Below are positions 19,609 to 34,087 of a DNA stretch of 64,000 nucleotides, in pieces. The DNA is from an uncultured Candidatus Saccharibacteria bacterium. Lineage in GTDB: Bacteria; Patescibacteriota; Saccharimonadia; Saccharimonadales; Saccharimonadaceae. The first letter of the stretch is position 1, and every line of letters starts with the position of its first letter. The DNA lies in contig CAUSBR010000001.1 in the NCBI GenBank assembly GCA_963530345.1, forward strand, positions 104,053 through 168,052, read 5' to 3'. The position numbers were made by a program, and so were the translations under genes. The notes under the pieces were generated by a model that saw only the letters and a program-made list of their open reading frames with translations, made no database searches and was not told the origin of the DNA.

Positions 19609-22600
19609 TTAACGCACTTCATATCTTACATCCTCAATAATTTCTCCGTTATCATCTAAATAGCAGATACCCTGAACCTCTAAGCGCTGCTTCGCATAAT
19701 TGCCATTATTGTGATAAAGTTTTTCACCCAGCACTGACCATATAATAGTTAAACTTTTTCTCTCGAGTTCTTCTATAAATGTATTCTTGTTTACTAATAA
19801 AGAATCTGAACTTAAGCATTCATCCAGATCGGGATTAAACATGCATATGTTTTTGTCTTTTGATTTATATACTCCTACGTTATTGGTATCTTGTATGCTT
19901 AATAACTTTCTTATGACTAAATTTGGACTATAAATTCTGATGCCTGTATTTCTAAGAGCTCGGTCTTCTTCAAAGCTACTGCCAGAATATTGAATAACAG
20001 GTTGTATAACTTTGAAGGGTGCTTGTTCGTCGGGAGTTATCCATCCATCGCTTGGCTCATAGATTGCTATAGTATCTTGATATGCAGAACTATTAGGGAA
20101 CTCTGAAAGAAATACCGAACGGCTATGGTCAGTGGGCTGTGGCAGTGTATCATTATAGAACCTTTTGCCTTTACTCCATCTCATAATTGTTTGTAAGTCT
20201 TTTTTATAAACAACATATCCTTGGGTGCGGATCCATAGTTCGCGATATCTTCTGTCGTCTTCATCTTCTGGGCTTTCTCTCTCACTCTTCCAAATCGCCC
20301 AGCTCAAGAGTGTAATAAAAGTCTTGTTGCTATGTTTGCTTTCTATTATAGTTTTTGGTCTTGGTATGTCTTCGGATGAAAATTGCCAGTTTTCTGTTCT
20401 CCATGCACTGTATGAAGGTTTCCACCAGATATCCTTTTCGTCGTCATTTTTGTTCGTGAATTTTTCCAATAGTAATGGATCGACGGTAGGGTCTAAATCT
20501 CTTGCGGATGTTTGGTAGGCACTTTTGAAAGTTGCAGGAGTATCGTCCAGCCAACGATCCTGAACATAGTAATAATTGGATCCTATCATTGCCAAGAATT
20601 CGTACAAGGCTATCCATTGGTATTTTTTACCTATACGCTCAACACTACTATTTTGGAGGCGATCAAAACTACCACGATCTCTATCATATTCTTCATGAAG
20701 CTCTGGACTCCATCCAAGCTTTATAACTCTGTCCATTATCCATCTACGCGCTATATTAATATCATAATCTTCGAAAGCTTTAGTAAAAGTTTTTTCACCG
20801 ACGACATAAAGCTTATATTTTTTATACTCACGTTTCTTAGAAGATGATAGCGATTTTTCAAAGTCATTTAATGCCCGTGACACCTCGTCATCTGATATTT
20901 TTTGCTTGATAGCAGTAGATTTAATGAGATTAAAACTGAGCCGATTACTTAATTTCTTGGAGTCATATTCTTCTAACAGCTTCTTCTGTTTTTTAGAAAG
21001 TGATTTCATGAATCTGTTGAAGTCTTTTCTAGAGGTGTTGGGGCTTAACAAATTTTTGGACAGGGGAATGTTCGTAAACTCACTTAAATAAAAATTTACC
21101 GTGTAGTTGCCAAAATCCGCTAAGGCAGCTCCACCTTCGCCATACATGAGTGATCTCCATATCAAGCAGTAATTGTTATTATCATATTCTCTTCTAAGAC
21201 TATCTATGTCTGGTATATCATTTGGAAACTTATAGTATGTGAATGGAGGCTTAATTTTATTAAGGTCTACGTGAATATTATTCTTGTATTTTCGAATATA
21301 TAGTTCAATTAGTCCTTTCGCATAGTCATCCAATAATGCGTCTGGTCTGCGACTTTTGTTTAGGAAGTGGTTTTTATAAATCCATAAAACTAATGACTGA
21401 AATCCAGCCTTATCATGTGGATTTAACGAAACAACGCCATATGTTGCGGCAAATAACCTCTCGACTATATAGGGATCGTCAACATTAATAAATATCTCTA
21501 GTAATTTTACTAGGACGTCTTGGTGATACCTAAATAGCTGGATTAATGCTCTTGTTGATCGATCGCGTAGGTTATTTTCCGTTGATGATAGAGTCCAGGC
21601 TAGGGCTATGCCGGTCAGCAGTATCGCCTTTTGGTCGCTGATGTCCCTTGGTAGCCTACTAATGCTCCAAGATTGGATCCTTGATATGGCATTACCTTGT
21701 TCGCTGGTAGCGTTAAGTATGTATTGCTGAAACCACGAATCTCTTTCTGCTAAATTAGTTCCACTCAAGATTTCATGAAGCCTCATTGCATTTAGCGGGT
21801 GATTGGGAACCACGGAGACGTCAAATAAGCAATCCATTACTTCATATAGGTCGTATATCGAATCATTCATATATGTACTTATATACTTTCTAATCTGAGA
21901 TTCATCGATATAGGAAGCCTTGCCTGTTTTCTTGTCAAAACCATCAAGTTCAACATTGCGCCATTTTATACTATTAAGGAACGCAGTCTTTATTCTATAA
22001 TCATCTCTGTATTTCTCTGGAATTACCCACACAAACTCAGCCTTATCTTTCTTACACCGTTCCGGTATTTCTATTGATAGCGCCTCTAATAATCCAGTGT
22101 TGTATATATTTTCATCCAAAAACTTTCCGTCTGCAAAAAATCTCTGAGCGCTTACTTCAGAGTTAATTTTATTCTCAGTGAGCAGGGAACGTACGATTAA
22201 GTGATCGCTAAAACGGTTGTAGGTAAATTTATATTTGTATTCAATTCTTTTGCTATTTTTTCCGTATCTTGGATACTTTAATAACAGACCATATTTTTCC
22301 ATCAATTTTAAGAGTTCTGATGCGTGACTAGATACTTTAGGGTCAGCCTTAATGATTTTTAATATATTATAGCGTGATATGACTGAGGTTCTGTTTTGCC
22401 CCATCCATTTACCAACTTCCTTTATCACATGTTTCCATAAATATTCTTTGCCTATTTTTATATTTAATTCTTTTGCTATCTTTTTTGACTGGACTTTTAC
22501 ATATTGCTCAAAGACATGTGTGGCACCCTTACCCTTAAATGTCTTATTTGTTTCACCTTCATAGGCTTCACAAAATATCATTAAAAACAACGGATTCCTG

Positions 22601-23607
22601 AATTCTGGATTAATAATTGGGATTTCTGGCATTTTCATCTTATAATGTTTGAAAAATGTAGATATGGCGTCCCACTCCATTTCTGAAAATCCAAAATGCT
22701 CTACTGTGCTATATTTTCTTCTGTTTGGTATTATTTTTTCATAACCATTGCGAACACTAATAACTAAAGACAGCCCCTTAATGTTAAAAAGTTCTGAGAG
22801 CTGTGACCATTTTATAGCATCCGCCTCGTTGATGGCGTCTATAATCAAACAAACTCTCTCGGGTGAGGAATTAGCTAGAGACCTCAAGTCCTTTAGAAAA
22901 CCTGCGCTAGTTGTGTAACCCATTAATTTCGCCATACACACTACGGGGTTTGTGTCTTCTATGCTTGCAAGCTCATCTGATAGAAAAATTAAGGTAGGTT
23001 TTCCAGAGTTAATTCGACTGTTGGCATAGTCGCAAAGTAAGTGGGTTTTTCCAATGCCAGCTTCGCCTTTTAGAATCATCCGTGGCGTAGAGAATAGATC
23101 TACTTTGACTCCATCATTGATAAAATCCAGCAAGCTCCTCAGTGCCACATAAAGTGACCATATAGGACCTGTATCAATGCTAGTTTTTGCCCACTCTTCC
23201 TTCTCTTGACGCTCTTTATCTTGGAGATCTCTGAAAAACCAATAAAGATCATTAGATAATTTTATGGCGATTTTTAGCTTATTAGTTAATATACTCCATG
23301 ATATATTTTCGTTCTTTGATTTAGTTTTTAAGCTTAGTAATTTATCAATAACTGATTTTACATTTTTGTGTAGCTGTTTTAATTCTTCCGTTTTGTCTGG
23401 GTGATCAGTTCTAAAAAATAATAATTCTTTTTTCGCCTTATAAGTTAACTTAAATAGCTCAGCGAGGTACTCAGGTTCTCGATTTAGGGCTTGAAGGTTT
23501 CTTTTTATATTCTTGATTTCTAAATTAATATCACGATTGTATCGTAAACCAGCGCTGTTGTTGGCTCGTTTTAATCTTTCTTTTTGTGCTTGATTATCTA
23601 GTTTCAT
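19609..23607 (-). CDS. STAND NTPase, Avs (AVAST)-like anti-phage sensor with no recognisable N-terminal effector
   Basis: Walker A GEAGIGKTHLL, Walker B LIIDAINE, NPLFL and ERIGKKYQWIA motifs; 1332 aa; visibly AT-rich compared with its flanks. Confidence 0.75.
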   Translation of the reverse strand: MKLDNQAQKERLKRANNSAGLRYNRDINLEIKNIKRNLQALNREPEYLAELFKLTYKAKKELLFFRTDHPDKTEELKQLHKNVKSVIDKLLSLKTKSKNENISWSILTNKLKIAIKLSNDLYWFFRDLQDKERQEKEEWAKTSIDTGPIWSLYVALRSLLDFINDGVKVDLFSTPRMILKGEAGIGKTHLLCDYANSRINSGKPTLIFLSDELASIEDTNPVVCMAKLMGYTTSAGFLKDLRSLANSSPERVCLIIDAINEADAIKWSQLSELFNIKGLSLVISVRNGYEKIIPNRRKYSTVEHFGFSEMEWDAISTFFKHYKMKMPEIPIINPEFRNPLFLMIFCEAYEGETNKTFKGKGATHVFEQYVKVQSKKIAKELNIKIGKEYLWKHVIKEVGKWMGQNRTSVISRYNILKIIKADPKVSSHASELLKLMEKYGLLLKYPRYGKNSKRIEYKYKFTYNRFSDHLIVRSLLTENKINSEVSAQRFFADGKFLDENIYNTGLLEALSIEIPERCKKDKAEFVWVIPEKYRDDYRIKTAFLNSIKWRNVELDGFDKKTGKASYIDESQIRKYISTYMNDSIYDLYEVMDCLFDVSVVPNHPLNAMRLHEILSGTNLAERDSWFQQYILNATSEQGNAISRIQSWSISRLPRDISDQKAILLTGIALAWTLSSTENNLRDRSTRALIQLFRYHQDVLVKLLEIFINVDDPYIVERLFAATYGVVSLNPHDKAGFQSLVLWIYKNHFLNKSRRPDALLDDYAKGLIELYIRKYKNNIHVDLNKIKPPFTYYKFPNDIPDIDSLRREYDNNNYCLIWRSLMYGEGGAALADFGNYTVNFYLSEFTNIPLSKNLLSPNTSRKDFNRFMKSLSKKQKKLLEEYDSKKLSNRLSFNLIKSTAIKQKISDDEVSRALNDFEKSLSSSKKREYKKYKLYVVGEKTFTKAFEDYDINIARRWIMDRVIKLGWSPELHEEYDRDRGSFDRLQNSSVERIGKKYQWIALYEFLAMIGSNYYYVQDRWLDDTPATFKSAYQTSARDLDPTVDPLLLEKFTNKNDDEKDIWWKPSYSAWRTENWQFSSEDIPRPKTIIESKHSNKTFITLLSWAIWKSERESPEDEDDRRYRELWIRTQGYVVYKKDLQTIMRWSKGKRFYNDTLPQPTDHSRSVFLSEFPNSSAYQDTIAIYEPSDGWITPDEQAPFKVIQPVIQYSGSSFEEDRALRNTGIRIYSPNLVIRKLLSIQDTNNVGVYKSKDKNICMFNPDLDECLSSDSLLVNKNTFIEELERKSLTIIWSVLGEKLYHNNGNYAKQRLEVQGICYLDDNGEIIEDVRYEVR

Positions 23608-23725: not shown

Positions 23726-24190
23726 TCACGAGCCCCGCCGCAAAATATCCAAAACCCCAAACTTCCCGGTCAACACGGCTTGGTCAATAATGTGCGGTGT
23801 GAGGGCGGCGATGAGCTCTTTTGGTTTAGTGTCGCTTGGTAAATCCAGCGTCGTGTCGAGCGCGTACACGTAAAATTGATAGCGGTGCGTACCAAACGGC
23901 GGCTGCGGCCCGCCCCAGCCAGGCCGGCCCCAGCTGGTAACACCTTCGACAGCGCCCGCGGGTAGCGATTCGCCAGTTATTTCAGTAGTTTCGGCCGGCA
24001 AACTCCAAACCATCCAATGGTAAAATCCATCGCGCCCAGGCGCGTCAGGGTCGTGGCAGACAACTACCAGACTTTTGGCGTCTATCGGCACATCGCTGAT
24101 CTCGAGCGGCGGGCGTTGATTACCGCCGAACTTGGAGTAAATTTTTGGTATTTTAGCGTTTTCGGTGAACGCAGGGCTAGATATCTTCAT
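23726..24190 (-). CDS. YbhB/YbcL (PEBP/Raf kinase inhibitor-like) protein
   Basis: HDPDAP, FYHW, GPQPPFGTHRYQFYVYALD. Confidence 0.92.
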   Translation of the reverse strand: MKISSPAFTENAKIPKIYSKFGGNQRPPLEISDVPIDAKSLVVVCHDPDAPGRDGFYHWMVWSLPAETTEITGESLPAGAVEGVTSWGRPGWGGPQPPFGTHRYQFYVYALDTTLDLPSDTKPKELIAALTPHIIDQAVLTGKFGVLDILRRGS

Positions 24191-24356
24191 AATTTAATTC
24201 TACCATGCCAGTGTCGTCAGGTGTGAGCCGCGGTAAAATACGAAACCTTAAACACAGTAGCTTGCCGAAGCAAAACAGTTTTCGATCAGTTTTATCGATA
24301 GCTGGCTTACCGAACAACCTCTGGAGAGCCACTGGTCTATATGCTAAAATAAACAT

Positions 24357-24509
24357 GTGAGATATGCTTTTGTTTTCGTGAGTATAGTGGCTATTTGGCT
24401 GGCTATGCTGCTGTTGGTAAATACGAGCATTGATCCGTTATTTTTGTATATTTGCGTGTTAGTTTTGACGCTGGTGTTGTATTTCATTGGGTTTCGGAGG
24501 GCTAGGTAA
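24357..24509 (+). CDS. Unannotated 50-aa two-TM microprotein (MRYAFVFVSIVAIWLAMLLLVNTSIDPLFLYICVLVLTLVLYFIGFRRAR)
   Basis: GTG lies 6 nt after TGcTAAAAT; its TAA abuts the next GTG; two hydrophobic stretches; similar to 25958..26146. Confidence 0.75.
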   Translation: MRYAFVFVSIVAIWLAMLLLVNTSIDPLFLYICVLVLTLVLYFIGFRRAR

Positions 24510-25961
24510 GTGCGCTTGTTATTTGTGGTTCGGGCGTTGTTTCGGGTGTGGCGTGCTTGGCGCAGCGATCAAATATGGCTTAAAGTTTTATCAGACGAGT
24601 GTCAAAATTTAGGCGGCGTGTATGTCAAGTTTTTACAGCATTTGGCGTCGACTGAACTAATGGCTCAGGTGTATGCTAACTCTGGATATCGGCTGGATGC
24701 TTTTGATGATGTGGCGGTTGAGCCAATTGACGTTGCCGAGGTTTTGCGGCAAGAGCTGGGAGTCAAGGCTAGTCAAATAGTTGTCGAGGGAAACCAGCCG
24801 TTCGCTACGGGTTCATTCGCCCAGGTTTATCGCTGCCGCGTAGCTGACCGTCCAGGTAGCCGGTATATCATCAAGGTCCTTCGCCCCAGCGTGGTGCGCT
24901 ATCTGAATTTTGACTTTGTGGCGCTGCGTTTTTGCTGTTGGGCGGGGCAGTTTATGCTAAAGAACGATATTTTTCCGTTGGTTGAGATTGCTGATGAGTT
25001 TATCAAAACCACCAAGCGTGAAACCGATTATCAGCGCGAGTTAATTACAGCTCAGGCAATTCGTGAATATTTTACTAAACGCACCGACAGAGTTGTGGTG
25101 CCAGAGACGCTGGCTGATTATTCAACGCCGCGGATATTGGTTCAGGACTATATAGACGGCTTGCCGCTAACCAAAGTGGTGGAACAAGCGCAGGCGGGGC
25201 GCGACACCTACCAGTTTGTCAAAGACCAACTTGGCTCTGACATGCAGCAGCAATTAGTGACGGTCGGCAGTGAGTTTTTAATCGCAATTTTACAAGCAGA
25301 TATCATTATGGCCGATCCGCATCCAGGTAATATTTATTTGCTGAGAGACAATAAAGTTGCGTTGATCGACTTTGGTTTGGCGATGGCAGCACCGCGGCAT
25401 CGCGCCTCGTTTTATCATATGATCGTGCAGTATCGAGCGCTGTATGAAGATCGAGCTGACATGGGTTTATTGGCACTGGCGATGTTGGCGTTTTATGATC
25501 ATACGCTGTATCAAGCGCTGGATGTGATCGCCAAAGATCGCAGCTTGACACGCACTATTTATGAATATGCGAACACGCTGCTTCAATCGACAACCAGCAC
25601 GTTTGCTGCCAATCGGCAAATAACCCAATTATTCCTCAATGAAATTAACGCTGGTAATCGTTTTGCTGTCAGGTTAGATAGCGTTGATATCATGTTGCAG
25701 CGCGGTTTGTATCATTATCTAGCAGCAGCGAGGTTGGCGTGCGGCGATGAATATCGAAAGACACATTATTGGCGGATTGTCCACGACGCCCTGGAATTGG
25801 CCGAGGTTCACGCTAATATCTATGGAATCAGCGAGGCGGTGCGTTCGTCGCCGATGAGTATTGAGCTGGCGCAAGAAATAGTGATGGACTGGATGAGCAA
25901 GGTTGCGGAGCGTGACAGAGCCGCCTACGCCATGTTGTTACAAAAAGGAGAATTATCATGA
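24510..25961 (+). CDS. ABC1/UbiB/AarF-family atypical protein kinase
   Basis: LGGVYVKFLQ (KxGQ-like), ATGSFAQVY, IIKVLRP, ADPHPGN, LIDFG. Confidence 0.88.
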   Translation: MRLLFVVRALFRVWRAWRSDQIWLKVLSDECQNLGGVYVKFLQHLASTELMAQVYANSGYRLDAFDDVAVEPIDVAEVLRQELGVKASQIVVEGNQPFATGSFAQVYRCRVADRPGSRYIIKVLRPSVVRYLNFDFVALRFCCWAGQFMLKNDIFPLVEIADEFIKTTKRETDYQRELITAQAIREYFTKRTDRVVVPETLADYSTPRILVQDYIDGLPLTKVVEQAQAGRDTYQFVKDQLGSDMQQQLVTVGSEFLIAILQADIIMADPHPGNIYLLRDNKVALIDFGLAMAAPRHRASFYHMIVQYRALYEDRADMGLLALAMLAFYDHTLYQALDVIAKDRSLTRTIYEYANTLLQSTTSTFAANRQITQLFLNEINAGNRFAVRLDSVDIMLQRGLYHYLAAARLACGDEYRKTHYWRIVHDALELAEVHANIYGISEAVRSSPMSIELAQEIVMDWMSKVAERDRAAYAMLLQKGELS

Positions 25962-26146
25962 AGCAATTACAACAATGGGTGATGCAAGTTCGCTATCCGT
26001 ATGCCGCGGGAATCATCGCCGTGATGTGGATTGGCACGGCGTTTTTCGCTTACCTGAAACCCGACGTCCCGCTTGAATTTTTGGTTGGAAGCCTCGCTGT
26101 TAGTACCATCATCATTGCTATTACCGGGCTGTCGGAGGCTCGCTGA
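25958..26146 (+). CDS. 62-aa two-TM microprotein
   Basis: AAGGAG RBS, ATGA overlap with the kinase stop, two hydrophobic helices. Confidence 0.75.
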   Translation: MKQLQQWVMQVRYPYAAGIIAVMWIGTAFFAYLKPDVPLEFLVGSLAVSTIIIAITGLSEAR

Positions 26147-26213
26147 ATTTTACAGTGAAATAAGCAATTTTTATACGCCTTACTAATGTACATCATTTAC
26201 AATAAGAATCCGC

Positions 26214-26933
26214 ATGAGATCTAAAACCGCTGCTCAAAAAATACTAGAATTTTACGACAGTCTGAAAAATATTGACATAAATTTGCCGGAAAAATATCGC
26301 CTAATCAATCCGTTTACTAACGACGATTGGCAGCGAATAGCACAAATAACGCATCGGTTTTATCGTCAGTACTATCATGATAATAAGCGGCGGTTTATGA
26401 TTTTGGGCAGCTCGCCAGCGCGCCGCGGGACAGCACTTACTGGCGTGCCGTTTGAAGACGTTAATCATTTACAAAAAGACACCGGGATTTCTATAGATGC
26501 TTTTGGAGCGAACAAACGCTCGTCAAGTTTCTTATATGAAGTAATGGAAGAATACGGTGGGCGCCAGAATTTTTATAAACAATTTTACATGAGTTTTGTG
26601 TGTCCGCTAGGTATTGAAAAGATAAATTTGAAAGGTAATTGGGCAAATTGTAACTACTATGAAAATGCAGCTCTAAAAAAATGTTTACATCCTTTTATCG
26701 TAGATTCGCTGAGGCGCCAGATTGATTTTAATATTGATACATCCGTTTGCTTTTGCATCGGCAGTGGTGAGAATTTTAAGTTTTTGACCAATATAAATAA
26801 TAAGCATCGTTTCTTTGATACTATCGTGCCGCTGGAGCATCCGCGGTTTATTATGCAGTATAATGCGGATCGCAAAGAAGAGTTTATGCAAAAGTATGTA
26901 AATATTTTCAGACAATACGGTATGGGGAAATAA
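26214..26933 (+). CDS. Uracil-DNA glycosylase superfamily protein (SMUG2/DUF4918-like)
   Basis: ILGSSPARRGTALTGVPF, NCNYYE, PLEHPRFIMQY; AT-rich. Confidence 0.8.
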   Translation: MRSKTAAQKILEFYDSLKNIDINLPEKYRLINPFTNDDWQRIAQITHRFYRQYYHDNKRRFMILGSSPARRGTALTGVPFEDVNHLQKDTGISIDAFGANKRSSSFLYEVMEEYGGRQNFYKQFYMSFVCPLGIEKINLKGNWANCNYYENAALKKCLHPFIVDSLRRQIDFNIDTSVCFCIGSGENFKFLTNINNKHRFFDTIVPLEHPRFIMQYNADRKEEFMQKYVNIFRQYGMGK

Positions 26934-26975
26934 TAGCGAACGACATTAATCCAATAATTGCGATATAATTTAATA

Positions 26976-31369: not shown

Positions 31370-34087
31370 ATGAAAGCAGCTACAATTACTCAACCCTTGG
31401 CGTCGGCGGCTCCGGCAGTCGACGACCAAATTTTGCGACCGCTCAATCCGCGGACATTGACGGTCGATATCGTATTGCCAGTTCTTAACGAAGCTCATGT
31501 GCTTGAGCAGTCGGTTACCAAACTGCATAGATATCTTGCCAGCAATCTGCCGTATAAATGGCGTATAATTATTGCCGATAATGGTAGCACCGATGGTACA
31601 GCGGCGATTGCTCGCCGGCTAGCTGAGAGACATCCAGAGATCCGCTTGCTACAATTGCCAGAAAAAGGCCGCGGCCGGGCTCTTAAACAGGCTTGGGTGA
31701 GTAGCAAGGCGGACATTCTAGCCTATATGGATATTGATTTGTCGACGAATCTTGACAGTTTTAAACCGATGATTACGTCGCTGATTACTGGAGACGCTGG
31801 ATTAGCGACTGGTTCTCGTTTGATGAAAGAATCGCGGACAAGGCGCGGTTTTAAACGCGAGATTATCTCGCGCTGTTATAATCGAATCATCAGGACTACT
31901 ATGAAGACTAATTTTGTCGATGCGCAGTGCGGCTTCAAAGCAATTCGCCGCGACCTAGCGCAAAAGTTATTGCCGCATATTAAAGACAAAGCTTGGTTTT
32001 TTGATACTGAATTGCTGGTTAAAGCGGAATACGAAGGCTACAAAATTCATGAAGAACCGGTCGAGTGGGTAGAAGACGCTGATTCGCGAGTGCGTATTGT
32101 TGAAACGGCGGCAGACGACATCAAGGGCCTATCGCGTGTTCGCAAAGAGTATGGTAAATCAAGTTTTGGCGAAATGGCAGCCTTTGGCGGTTTACTGCTT
32201 TTTATGTCTATATTTTATCTATGGAACTTGACAATCAACGGTATGGCAAATAGCTACTATGCGGCGGCAGCGCAAGCTGCTAGTACTAGTTGGCTAGCTT
32301 GGTTGTTTGGCAGTCTGGATGCTGCCAATTTTGTTAGCGTTGATAAGCCGCCGATTAGCATGATGATTATGGGGTTGTTTGGTAGATTATTTGGCTTCTC
32401 ATCTTGGAGTATGCTGTTACCGCATGCACTAGCGGGAATCGCGACGGTGGTGCTAGTTTATCTGGTGGTTAGACGCTGGTATGGTGCTCGTGCCGGATTG
32501 ATTACCGGGGCGGTAATGGCGTTGACACCAGCTGCTGCGCTAATGTTTCGTTTTAACAATCCAGATAGTTTCTTGACGCTATTTTTGACGGCCAGTGCTT
32601 ATAGTTTTTTGCGGGCTTTCGAAGGAAATAAGCCAGTGTTGTGGTTGAGTCTGGCTGGCTTATTTACGGGGTTTGCTTTTAATACTAAAATGTTACAAGG
32701 TTTGCTTTTGTTGCCGATAATGACAATCATTTACATTAGCTTTGCACGCCCAAAATTCACTACCAGAATGTGGCATCTCGGCGTGGCCGGCATAGTGACA
32801 ATCGTATCGACGTTTTGGTGGAGTATTTTGGTGTGGCTAACGCCAGCGGTAAGCAGACCTTGGGTTGGCAGCACGAGCGACAATAGCATATGGAGTTTGA
32901 TATTTGGTTATAACGGTTTTGGAAGACTGTTGGGTGATGGTGGCGGCCCTGGAGGCCGGCCAGACGGTATGATGCAAATGGGTGCGCAGGCTGCTAGTCA
33001 AACCGCTTCGCCAACAGCGCAACTAATGATGCCGCCGATTGGTATGATGGGCGGCAGTTTTGGTGCGGGCGGTCATGGCAACGGTCCTGGCGGTGTTGGC
33101 TTTGGCGGCGAGACTGGCGTGCTGCGTATATTTAATGAGAGCTTTGGGCCGAATATTGCTTGGCTAATTCCGGTAGCCTTGATTAGCGCTGGGTTAGTAA
33201 TCTGGTTGTTGCGCCGAGCACCGCGACACAATAAGGAGCGCATCGGTGTGTTATTATGGCTGGGTTGGCTGCTGATGCATATAGTAATTTTCAGCATGAC
33301 CAGTGGCACTATTCATCCATATTACGTTGTAACTATGGCGCCGGCAGTAGCAGCGCTGGTCGGTATCGGGGCGCCATACATATGGCAAGCTTACACGCGT
33401 CGCACCAAAGTAGCCTGGATACTGCCGCTGAGTATCGCGCTAACGACAATTCTTAGCATTATTATGCTCGGCTATAGCAACTATTGGCCTTGGCTGATGT
33501 GGCTAGTGATGATTGCCGGTGGTGTAGCAACTATTTTGACGCTGCTGCTGTTACCGCAGACGAAACGGCTTAAACAAATTATTCTTGGCTTAGCAATTAC
33601 TGCTGGTATGGCGGCACCGATTGTCTTTAGTGTTAGCACGGTAGCTACAGCGCATAGCGGCAGTATTCCAACGGCTGGTCCAGGCGCTTCAGCGATGAGC
33701 AATACAAATAATGAGTCGGCGCGAGCTGAATCGACGCTCGTCTCGTTTTTGCTAGAAAACCGTCATGGCACGACATGGCTGGCGGCAGTTAATAGTGCTA
33801 ACGAATCGGCACCGATTCAATTATCAAGCGGTCAGCCAGTTATGGCCATCGGCGGCTTCAATGGTAGTGACTCGACGTTGACGCTATCACAATTCAAACA
33901 GCTCGTCCATCAGGGCAAAATCCGCTACTATGTATTAAATAGTATACATGAGAAATCTGGCGGTCCCAGCGGCATAAGTGGACCAGGTGGTAACTCCGAA
34001 ATCTTATCATGGGTGAAAAGTGCTGGTAGTAAAGTCGATTACGGCGGTACGCAATATACAGTTTATGATCTTGCGGCGGTTGCTTAA
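31370..34087 (+). CDS. Fusion of a GT2 polyprenyl-phosphate glycosyltransferase and an ArnT/PMT-family GT-C (YkcC-YkcB-like)
   Basis: VLPVLNE, IADNGSTD, YMDIDLST and DAQCGFK, then NSYYAAA, VDKPP, FRFNNPD and many TM helices. Confidence 0.88.
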   Translation: MKAATITQPLASAAPAVDDQILRPLNPRTLTVDIVLPVLNEAHVLEQSVTKLHRYLASNLPYKWRIIIADNGSTDGTAAIARRLAERHPEIRLLQLPEKGRGRALKQAWVSSKADILAYMDIDLSTNLDSFKPMITSLITGDAGLATGSRLMKESRTRRGFKREIISRCYNRIIRTTMKTNFVDAQCGFKAIRRDLAQKLLPHIKDKAWFFDTELLVKAEYEGYKIHEEPVEWVEDADSRVRIVETAADDIKGLSRVRKEYGKSSFGEMAAFGGLLLFMSIFYLWNLTINGMANSYYAAAAQAASTSWLAWLFGSLDAANFVSVDKPPISMMIMGLFGRLFGFSSWSMLLPHALAGIATVVLVYLVVRRWYGARAGLITGAVMALTPAAALMFRFNNPDSFLTLFLTASAYSFLRAFEGNKPVLWLSLAGLFTGFAFNTKMLQGLLLLPIMTIIYISFARPKFTTRMWHLGVAGIVTIVSTFWWSILVWLTPAVSRPWVGSTSDNSIWSLIFGYNGFGRLLGDGGGPGGRPDGMMQMGAQAASQTASPTAQLMMPPIGMMGGSFGAGGHGNGPGGVGFGGETGVLRIFNESFGPNIAWLIPVALISAGLVIWLLRRAPRHNKERIGVLLWLGWLLMHIVIFSMTSGTIHPYYVVTMAPAVAALVGIGAPYIWQAYTRRTKVAWILPLSIALTTILSIIMLGYSNYWPWLMWLVMIAGGVATILTLLLLPQTKRLKQIILGLAITAGMAAPIVFSVSTVATAHSGSIPTAGPGASAMSNTNNESARAESTLVSFLLENRHGTTWLAAVNSANESAPIQLSSGQPVMAIGGFNGSDSTLTLSQFKQLVHQGKIRYYVLNSIHEKSGGPSGISGPGGNSEILSWVKSAGSKVDYGGTQYTVYDLAAVA

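Follow-up and report, generated by a model that had tools for sequence, protein, structure and literature searches.

A three-gene module made up of a UbiB/ABC1 atypical kinase-ATPase, K, and two microproteins, A and B, that bracket it was found in the window, the whole stretch of 64,000 nucleotides of Candidatus Saccharibacteria DNA analysed here, which comes from a genome of 895 kb that is 92% complete. The module recurs in several CPR classes and is kept in many Patescibacteria. A and B represent a new, unnamed family of paralogous microproteins, and the kinase that accompanies them is new within the UbiB family. Tentatively, as a reading that could well prove wrong, we propose by analogy that A and B assemble into a hetero-oligomer in the membrane, which replaces a lost transmembrane hairpin of the kinase and positions K as an ATPase handling membrane lipids. 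A search of the literature returned no paper on a UbiB module of Saccharibacteria, Patescibacteria or CPR, nor on a bacterial operon that pairs UbiB with small membrane proteins; subscription journals and bioRxiv supplements lay outside its scope.

The three genes lie on the forward strand. An extended −10 promoter-like site, TG-c-TAAAAT, was read from the sequence at positions 24342..24350. It is followed by A (24357..24509; 50 aa, GTG start, two hydrophobic segments and basic ends), K (24510..25961; 483 aa, assigned through PF03109 and a structural model, with no transmembrane hairpin) and B (25958..26146; 62 aa, paralogous to A and extended at its N terminus), the assignments of A and B relying on pN/pS and on alignments of 69 and 67 rows, respectively. 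The GTG start codon of K comes directly after the TAA of A, while the stop codon of K and the start codon of B form an ATGA overlap, with AGGAG upstream of B. The three ORFs, both junctions and the extended −10 site are thus present just as the preliminary description of this DNA had them. A YbhB/YbcL (PEBP) family gene is divergent from the operon (23726-24190, reverse strand), and a uracil-DNA-glycosylase (UDG)-superfamily gene of low GC content (38%) is located at 26214-26933 on the forward strand. A gene for an Avs2-like anti-phage NTPase (1332 aa, 36% GC, 803 bits versus a cut-off of 1000) occupies positions 19609-23607 of the reverse strand. A 905-aa ORF elsewhere in the window (31370-34087, forward strand) looks by eye like a GT2-like glycosyltransferase joined to a multi-helix membrane glycosyltransferase.

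In the genus to which the window belongs, the promoter, A, K, B and the UDG-superfamily gene make up an accessory block (24208..26963) located between the YbhB/YbcL and TylF-like genes; it occurs, or is missing, as a whole. At the empty sites of congeners G999 and G997 position 24207 is joined to 26964, and a contig joint in run X1 connects 24207 to 26974. Counting the rows listed, we find the module at the DNA level in 25 of 105 congeners. The YbhB/YbcL 'kinase inhibitor' gene was considered as a partner of the module and rejected, since it persists in congeners without the block, where it adjoins the TylF-like gene, and was not found beside distant loci. The UDG- and TylF-like genes were also dismissed as partners because they are not conserved neighbours; the former is missing in several relatives.

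Sampling of 401 genomes of the order (Saccharimonadales) gave kinase matches in 113, and in none of the 22 other genomes of the window's own family that the sample contains (G731 is counted in the order-wide tallies, and G719, G686 and G721 in the oxidase tally given below; all four are flagged as unpublished, and nothing else reported here depends on them). We examined 74 loci with 78 kinase ORFs, a selection from the order matches to which three hits from the phylum were added; L086 and L113, being duplicates, were left out of the counts. A is directly upstream of 70 of these ORFs, B is directly downstream of 68, and both are found at 65, as would be expected of the conserved three-gene module proposed in the preliminary description. 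The exceptions are a contig end, two tandem operons, three cases of B being displaced or on another contig, and five second copies of the kinase. Both tandem operons (L108 and L112) have the arrangement A-K1-K2-B, with two diverged kinases between a single A and a single B. Exactly one A and one B were present in each of five genomes checked, four of which carry two or three kinase matches. Outside the order, the module was detected in G042/G134, in G325 and its class (six of 162 genomes matched, one of them spuriously; G805, with two TGA codons and no kinase, was left out of this count) and in metagenome contigs. A metagenome scan with the microprotein, blind to the kinase, returned 24 loci, several of them from near-identical strains. 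A hairpin-less UbiB kinase is present at every one of the 18 loci with enough upstream DNA, and a homologue of A at every one of the 15 where the sequence extends to the kinase start. Related hairpin-less kinases carry database names such as Vogelbacteria, Roizmanbacteria and Parcubacteria, and flanks were examined for the Vogelbacteria type. The microprotein pair is also found beside kinases with canonical KxGQ/ASAS motifs.

No conserved fourth gene was found beside A-K-B, nor was a conserved lipid-pathway neighbour; the commonest neighbour is a convergent ymdB gene (36 of 66 loci). At L140, L141, L143, L151, L158 and L161 the K-B junction is a hot spot into which nucleotidyltransferase-HEPN, HicA and PIN genes have been inserted, with A and B retained. 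Upstream of the module in L108, L112, L077, L111 and L118 there is a membrane gene of ~223 aa with no Pfam hit at E 0.05; its identification as a polyprenol kinase, which was based on likeness by eye, was therefore rejected. In two related genomes (L034:96-710 and L035:623-1288), and at none of the other loci, genes with a DedA/VTT domain lie beside the module.

The 50-aa ORF of A, missed by the gene track and taken for a real gene in the preliminary description, proved to be conserved. Among 21 distinct alleles, 31 synonymous and three non-synonymous variants were counted, giving a pN/pS of 0.03, the values for B and K being 0.065 and 0.15; the alleles come from close kin, so the p-values are overstated. 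Of 32 close loci, 31 have A and 30 have B; contig ends account for the missing cases. On this sequence evidence A is a real coding gene. Selection is tighter on both microproteins than on K.

A −10 hexamer is located 4-10 nt before the start of A at 39 of 70 orthologous loci, which makes it likely that the mRNA of A is leaderless and may explain why A was overlooked by gene callers. The corresponding numbers are 6 of 67 loci for B and one of 70 for K, and an SD-like site was found for A at 5 of 70 and for B at 50 of 67 loci. The promoter scan as a whole yielded 13 sites versus 7.6 ± 3.1 expected by chance, i.e., little above expectation. An ATG-TGA element overlapping the start of A is not conserved, its ATG being replaced by CTG in L010, L011, L014, L015 and L024. 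Two runs labelled RNA yielded only pieces of 186-256 nt over K and K/B, which say nothing about starts or co-transcription.

In a metagenome lineage, 14 of 176 loci (L139, L140, L143, L145-L148, L151 and L153-L158) contain a conserved non-coding hairpin ~280 bp upstream of A (L140:690-925, for example) with an invariant loop, CACTCACATWAAGACATTT; the hairpin is not found at the window. Compensatory changes are seen in 19 of 48 predicted pairs across nine aligned loci. Most loci have, ahead of the hairpin, a promoter-like site followed by a short unit that a GC hairpin terminates; there, an 8-bp stretch complements the CACTCACATWAAGACATTT loop, a weak feature that 5-43 of 200 shuffles reach as well. 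The hairpin matched no Rfam family at the gathering score and no tRNA or tmRNA, and was absent from viral contigs. We regard it as a candidate structured leader or small-RNA pair.

The A family is characterized by the motif M[KR]Y-x10-W ... [IF]GF-x-K, in which Y3, W14 and F46 are invariant (69-row alignment), and the B family by KYPYxAxxI..W.G ... GF (67-row alignment). Common to both are [KR]Y-x10-W in helix 1 and GF with basic residues past helix 2. The likeness of A and B, first noticed by eye, is weak in pairwise comparison (27%, E 0.002) and much clearer at the level of profiles. Three profiles were used: A1, built from 69 A sequences; A2, from 67 B sequences; and A3, from 58 rows of the broader B family, including both G325 microproteins and no locus-derived Saccharimonadales A sequence. 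A1 matched A2 with a probability of 86 (E 4.8e-6, 52 columns) and A3 with a probability of 96.9 (E 1.4e-10), and neither score was reached by any of 60 shuffles preserving the two-helix layout. Judged by these profiles, A and B are paralogues. When A3 was run over 401 Patescibacteria genomes, 16 matches were obtained in eight genomes, two in each, and every one of them falls on the A or the B position next to the kinase; in the window's own genome A and B alone score at E ≤ 0.1 in the microprotein profile search. The one-A-one-B pattern would fit a heterodimer, and the basic ends and acidic loop suggest that both proteins are hairpins of N-in/C-in topology.

No family in Pfam, NCBIfam or PADLOC matches A or B above cut-off. 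PsaJ gave a weak match to 45 of 67 B rows (best E 0.0014), and Atlas leads for the microproteins were all <0.9. PsaJ, DUF6903 and papillomavirus E5 were rejected as identities of the microproteins, the matches being at the level of hydrophobicity only. In a library of 1.84 billion representatives B is a stand-alone protein in 68 of 69 matches, the remaining long match being a low-complexity repeat. A microprotein fused to another protein was found neither in these 69 matches nor, in a weaker search, among longer proteins.

K matches PF03109 above the curated cut-off (119 versus 22.9 bits, E 2.5e-34) and scores below the UbiB equivalog cut-offs (113 versus 487.55 bits for TIGR01982, 83.6 versus 667 bits for NF003404). 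The AF2 model of K (pLDDT 93) has COQ8A as its best fold match (Z 23.4, rmsd 4.3, 336 aligned residues, K residues 22-439) and shows a COQ8-like fold with an N-terminal KxGQ domain. Residues K122, E171, D269, N274 and D287-F288-G289 are invariant in 144 rows. Two motifs are altered. The KxGQ of the UbiB family is KFLQ in K, with L42 replacing the Gly, and the Gly is present in none of 128 clade rows (Leu in 123, Ile in two, Met in two and Val in one), the Lys and Gln being invariant. The A-rich loop AAAS is ATGS in K, its Gly being G101, and A-x-G-S in the clade, with Gly at the third position in 128 of 128 rows. All 16 rows from other CPR retain both the KxGQ Gly and the A-rich-loop Ala. In the alignment with 4PED the clade Gly occupies the position of COQ8A A339, and the same offset puts the DFG Asp at D507, matching the available part of 10.1101/149823; the portion of PMC8956952 available labels a mutant of the first Ala as the A339G equivalent, which conflicts with the 4PED-based numbering used here.

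As described in the available text of 10.1101/149823, A339G increases baseline ATPase activity and cis-autophosphorylation of COQ8A, mutants of the KxGQ domain lose CoQ function while their activity shifts towards autophosphorylation, and it is proposed that the KxGQ Gln keeps the water for hydrolysis in place. In ABC1K6, Ala-to-Gly changes lower kinase activity (PMC8956952, available in part), so the direction of the effect in K cannot be assumed.

The model predicts that residues 440-483 of K form two extra C-terminal helices, whose W461 is conserved in 99% of the 128 rows of the clade; the amphipathic helix 1-18 is basic (+5). None of 120 K homologues showed a C-terminal transmembrane segment when the hydropathy of the last 85 aa was scanned, and K is predicted to be cytoplasmic. 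Neither the missing hairpin nor the altered KxGQ and A-rich motifs had been noticed in the preliminary description. Canonical Patescibacteria UbiBs (L042-L047 and L049) have the C-terminal hairpin and no flanking microprotein; two UbiB-like matches, L041 and L048, have neither hairpin nor microproteins. In a quick, unrooted FastTree the window's kinase clade (31 rows) was split from the rest with SH support of 100, and the other hairpin-less lineages were placed apart from the hairpin-bearing group with support of 90, on long branches.

We tentatively favor the following scheme. A and B would pair 1:1 in the membrane as a hetero-oligomer, and this complex would dock K on the cytoplasmic face, standing in for the missing hairpin. 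Docking may proceed through the family-specific C-terminal helices of K (W461) and its basic amphipathic N-terminal helix. By analogy with COQ8 and Cqd1/Cqd2, ATP hydrolysis by K might then extract or reposition a membrane lipid, for which a polyprenyl carrier or a lipid derived from the host would be the most plausible candidates, and the role of the module would be conditional, non-essential membrane homeostasis. The observations behind the scheme are coding status, paralogy, synteny, hairpin loss, intact catalytic residues and the presence of one A and one B per genome. The one-A-one-B rule, together with the complementary distribution of the pair and the hairpin, supports a physical complex. 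According to the accessible parts of two papers, UbiB proteins are ATPases activated by membrane and lipid (10.1101/149823), and Cqd1/Cqd2 shift CoQ between membranes (PMC8346625). The invariant Lys and Gln of KxxQ, the match of the model to COQ8A, and an own genome with a UppS-family gene and no fatty-acid synthase match also speak for the scheme. Several findings speak against this scheme. No lipid-pathway neighbour is conserved, the commonest neighbour being ymdB; a UppS-family match is missing in two of five module genomes tested; close congeners lack the block; and the KxGQ and A-rich-loop changes of the clade are of the kind that favors autophosphorylation in COQ8 (10.1101/149823, available in part). 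When compared to the UbiB C-terminal hairpin, profiles A2, A3 and A1 gave probabilities of 36% (over 20 columns), 9% and 1.5%, with a reversed control at 30%, though the A2 score was reached by none of 60 shuffles. Homology to the hairpin is thus at most tentative and the anchor role is an analogy only; nor would an anchor be obligatory, since L041 and L048 do without both.

Apparent orthologues of K and B, judged by gene length and layout, are available in Southlakia epibionticum (PMC10633639, accessible in part): SEML1_0816, a 'protein kinase UbiB' of 1452 bp with a Pfam match at 74-307, and SEML1_0815, of 189 bp with a 4-bp overlap. Both were non-essential at all passages in Tn-seq, which also counts against the proposed scheme. 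The table of that paper, as available, has no gene entry at the position of A, so one member of the microprotein family can escape annotation; UbiB is unmentioned in the main text.

A role of the module in quinone synthesis is unlikely, since the window's own genome (92% complete) contains no match to the UbiA (PF01040), UbiD (PF01977), COX1 or ketoacyl-synthase families; the preliminary description had rightly looked for another job. Among five module genomes tested, PF01977 was matched in none and PF01040 in two. The own genome has an undecaprenyl-PP-synthase (UppS)-family gene and no fatty-acid synthase match. Capture or mobilization of host quinone for the cytochrome bo3-type oxidase of Saccharibacteria could be imagined, as UbiB relatives bind and move CoQ (10.1101/149823 and PMC8346625, available in part) and a COX1-family oxidase is encoded in 192 of the 401 genomes of the order. 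We consider it very improbable, and quinone supply to the oxidase was rejected, because the oxidase is equally common in genomes with the kinase (53 of 112) and without it (139 of 289), the odds ratio being 0.97 (G432, whose match contains stops, was left out). Evidence for scavenging of lipids or isoprenoids from the host, as suggested earlier, was not found: K is predicted to be cytoplasmic, a conserved lipid-pathway neighbour and a link to quinol oxidase were not found, and the apparent orthologue of the kinase was dispensable in the one published Tn-seq (PMC10633639, as far as available).

Split membrane signalling, with A and B sensing the state of the membrane and switching on a naturally unlocked UbiB Ser/Thr protein kinase that targets itself, A/B or other proteins, is in our opinion doubtful and yet worth considering. 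The Gly at the A339 position in every clade kinase and the loss of the KxGQ Gly, neither of them seen in the 16 rows from other CPR, would agree with it, as would the report of ABC1K6 as a protein kinase (PMC8956952, available in part). The microprotein pair, however, also accompanies kinases with canonical motifs and is therefore independent of the altered site, the Lys and Gln of KxxQ are invariant, Ala-to-Gly lowered the activity of ABC1K6, and the G-to-L and A-to-G replacements could be a compensating swap of residue size. An extended version, in which Saccharimonadia possess a natural 'unlocked' COQ8 turned from lipid ATPase into a membrane-sensing Ser/Thr kinase with an A/B heterodimer receptor, and in which this signalling or lipid-capture system is particular to host-dependent CPR, seems unlikely to us. 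Two-helix proteins are frequent defence effectors, and an anti-phage or toxin-antitoxin-like cassette, the kinase being sensor or toxin and the microproteins membrane effectors or antidotes, would account for a patchy, non-essential module gained and lost as a block, for the MNT-HEPN, HicA and PIN genes inserted between K and B at some loci, and for the Avs2 gene 0.7 kb upstream in the window. It is nonetheless improbable. PADLOC returned only generic kinase-core matches for K (PD-T4-6, best E 2.5e-6, ~100 aa) and none for A or B; searches against the PD-T4-6 and MADS anti-phage kinase systems gave neither a full-length nor a partner-gene match. The stable place beside ymdB across many families looks vertical, and insertions in the apparent orthologue of B are tolerated, unlike in an antitoxin (PMC10633639, available in part).

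The clade naturally bears a substitution that was engineered into COQ8A, in cells with no detected quinone pathway and with two partners that are likely needed. The module bears on the long-standing question of whether UbiB proteins act as ATPases or as protein kinases, on UbiB roles beyond quinone synthesis, and on how CPR manage their membranes without fatty-acid synthesis. A ready comparison is offered by sister lineages whose kinases have canonical motifs and these same partners, and clean deletions should be feasible, given the non-essential apparent orthologue in a genetically tractable Saccharibacterium (PMC10633639, available in part).

Among known systems, yeast Cqd1/Cqd2 provide a model of a UbiB ATPase acting on membrane lipids beyond quinone biosynthesis (PMC8346625, available in part); unlike K, which has no quinol-oxidase link, they are mitochondrial and CoQ-linked. 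The C-terminal hairpin of canonical bacterial and archaeal UbiB resembles A and B in size, in two-helix layout and in its complementary distribution at the loci examined, but no fused form was found and the profile probabilities of homology range from 1.5 to 36%, with a reversed control at 30%. Mycobacterial MABP-1/Rv3197 and MSMEG_1954 are ABC1 ATPases like K, give its best PDB sequence match (E 7.8e-11) and share its fold (Z 17-21); K, however, reaches only 52 bits versus a cut-off of 800, and the mycobacterial proteins have a canonical A-rich loop. To our knowledge, they have no microprotein partners. With the UbiB/ABC1/COQ8 family (PF03109; E. coli UbiB, human COQ8A), K shares the PKL fold with the KxGQ domain, the catalytic residues, HxN and DFG. 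It differs in scoring far below the UbiB equivalog cut-off, in lacking a transmembrane anchor, in its KxLQ and A-x-G-S motifs, in its extra C-terminal helices, in belonging to a genome with no detected quinone pathway, and in having a dedicated pair of microproteins.
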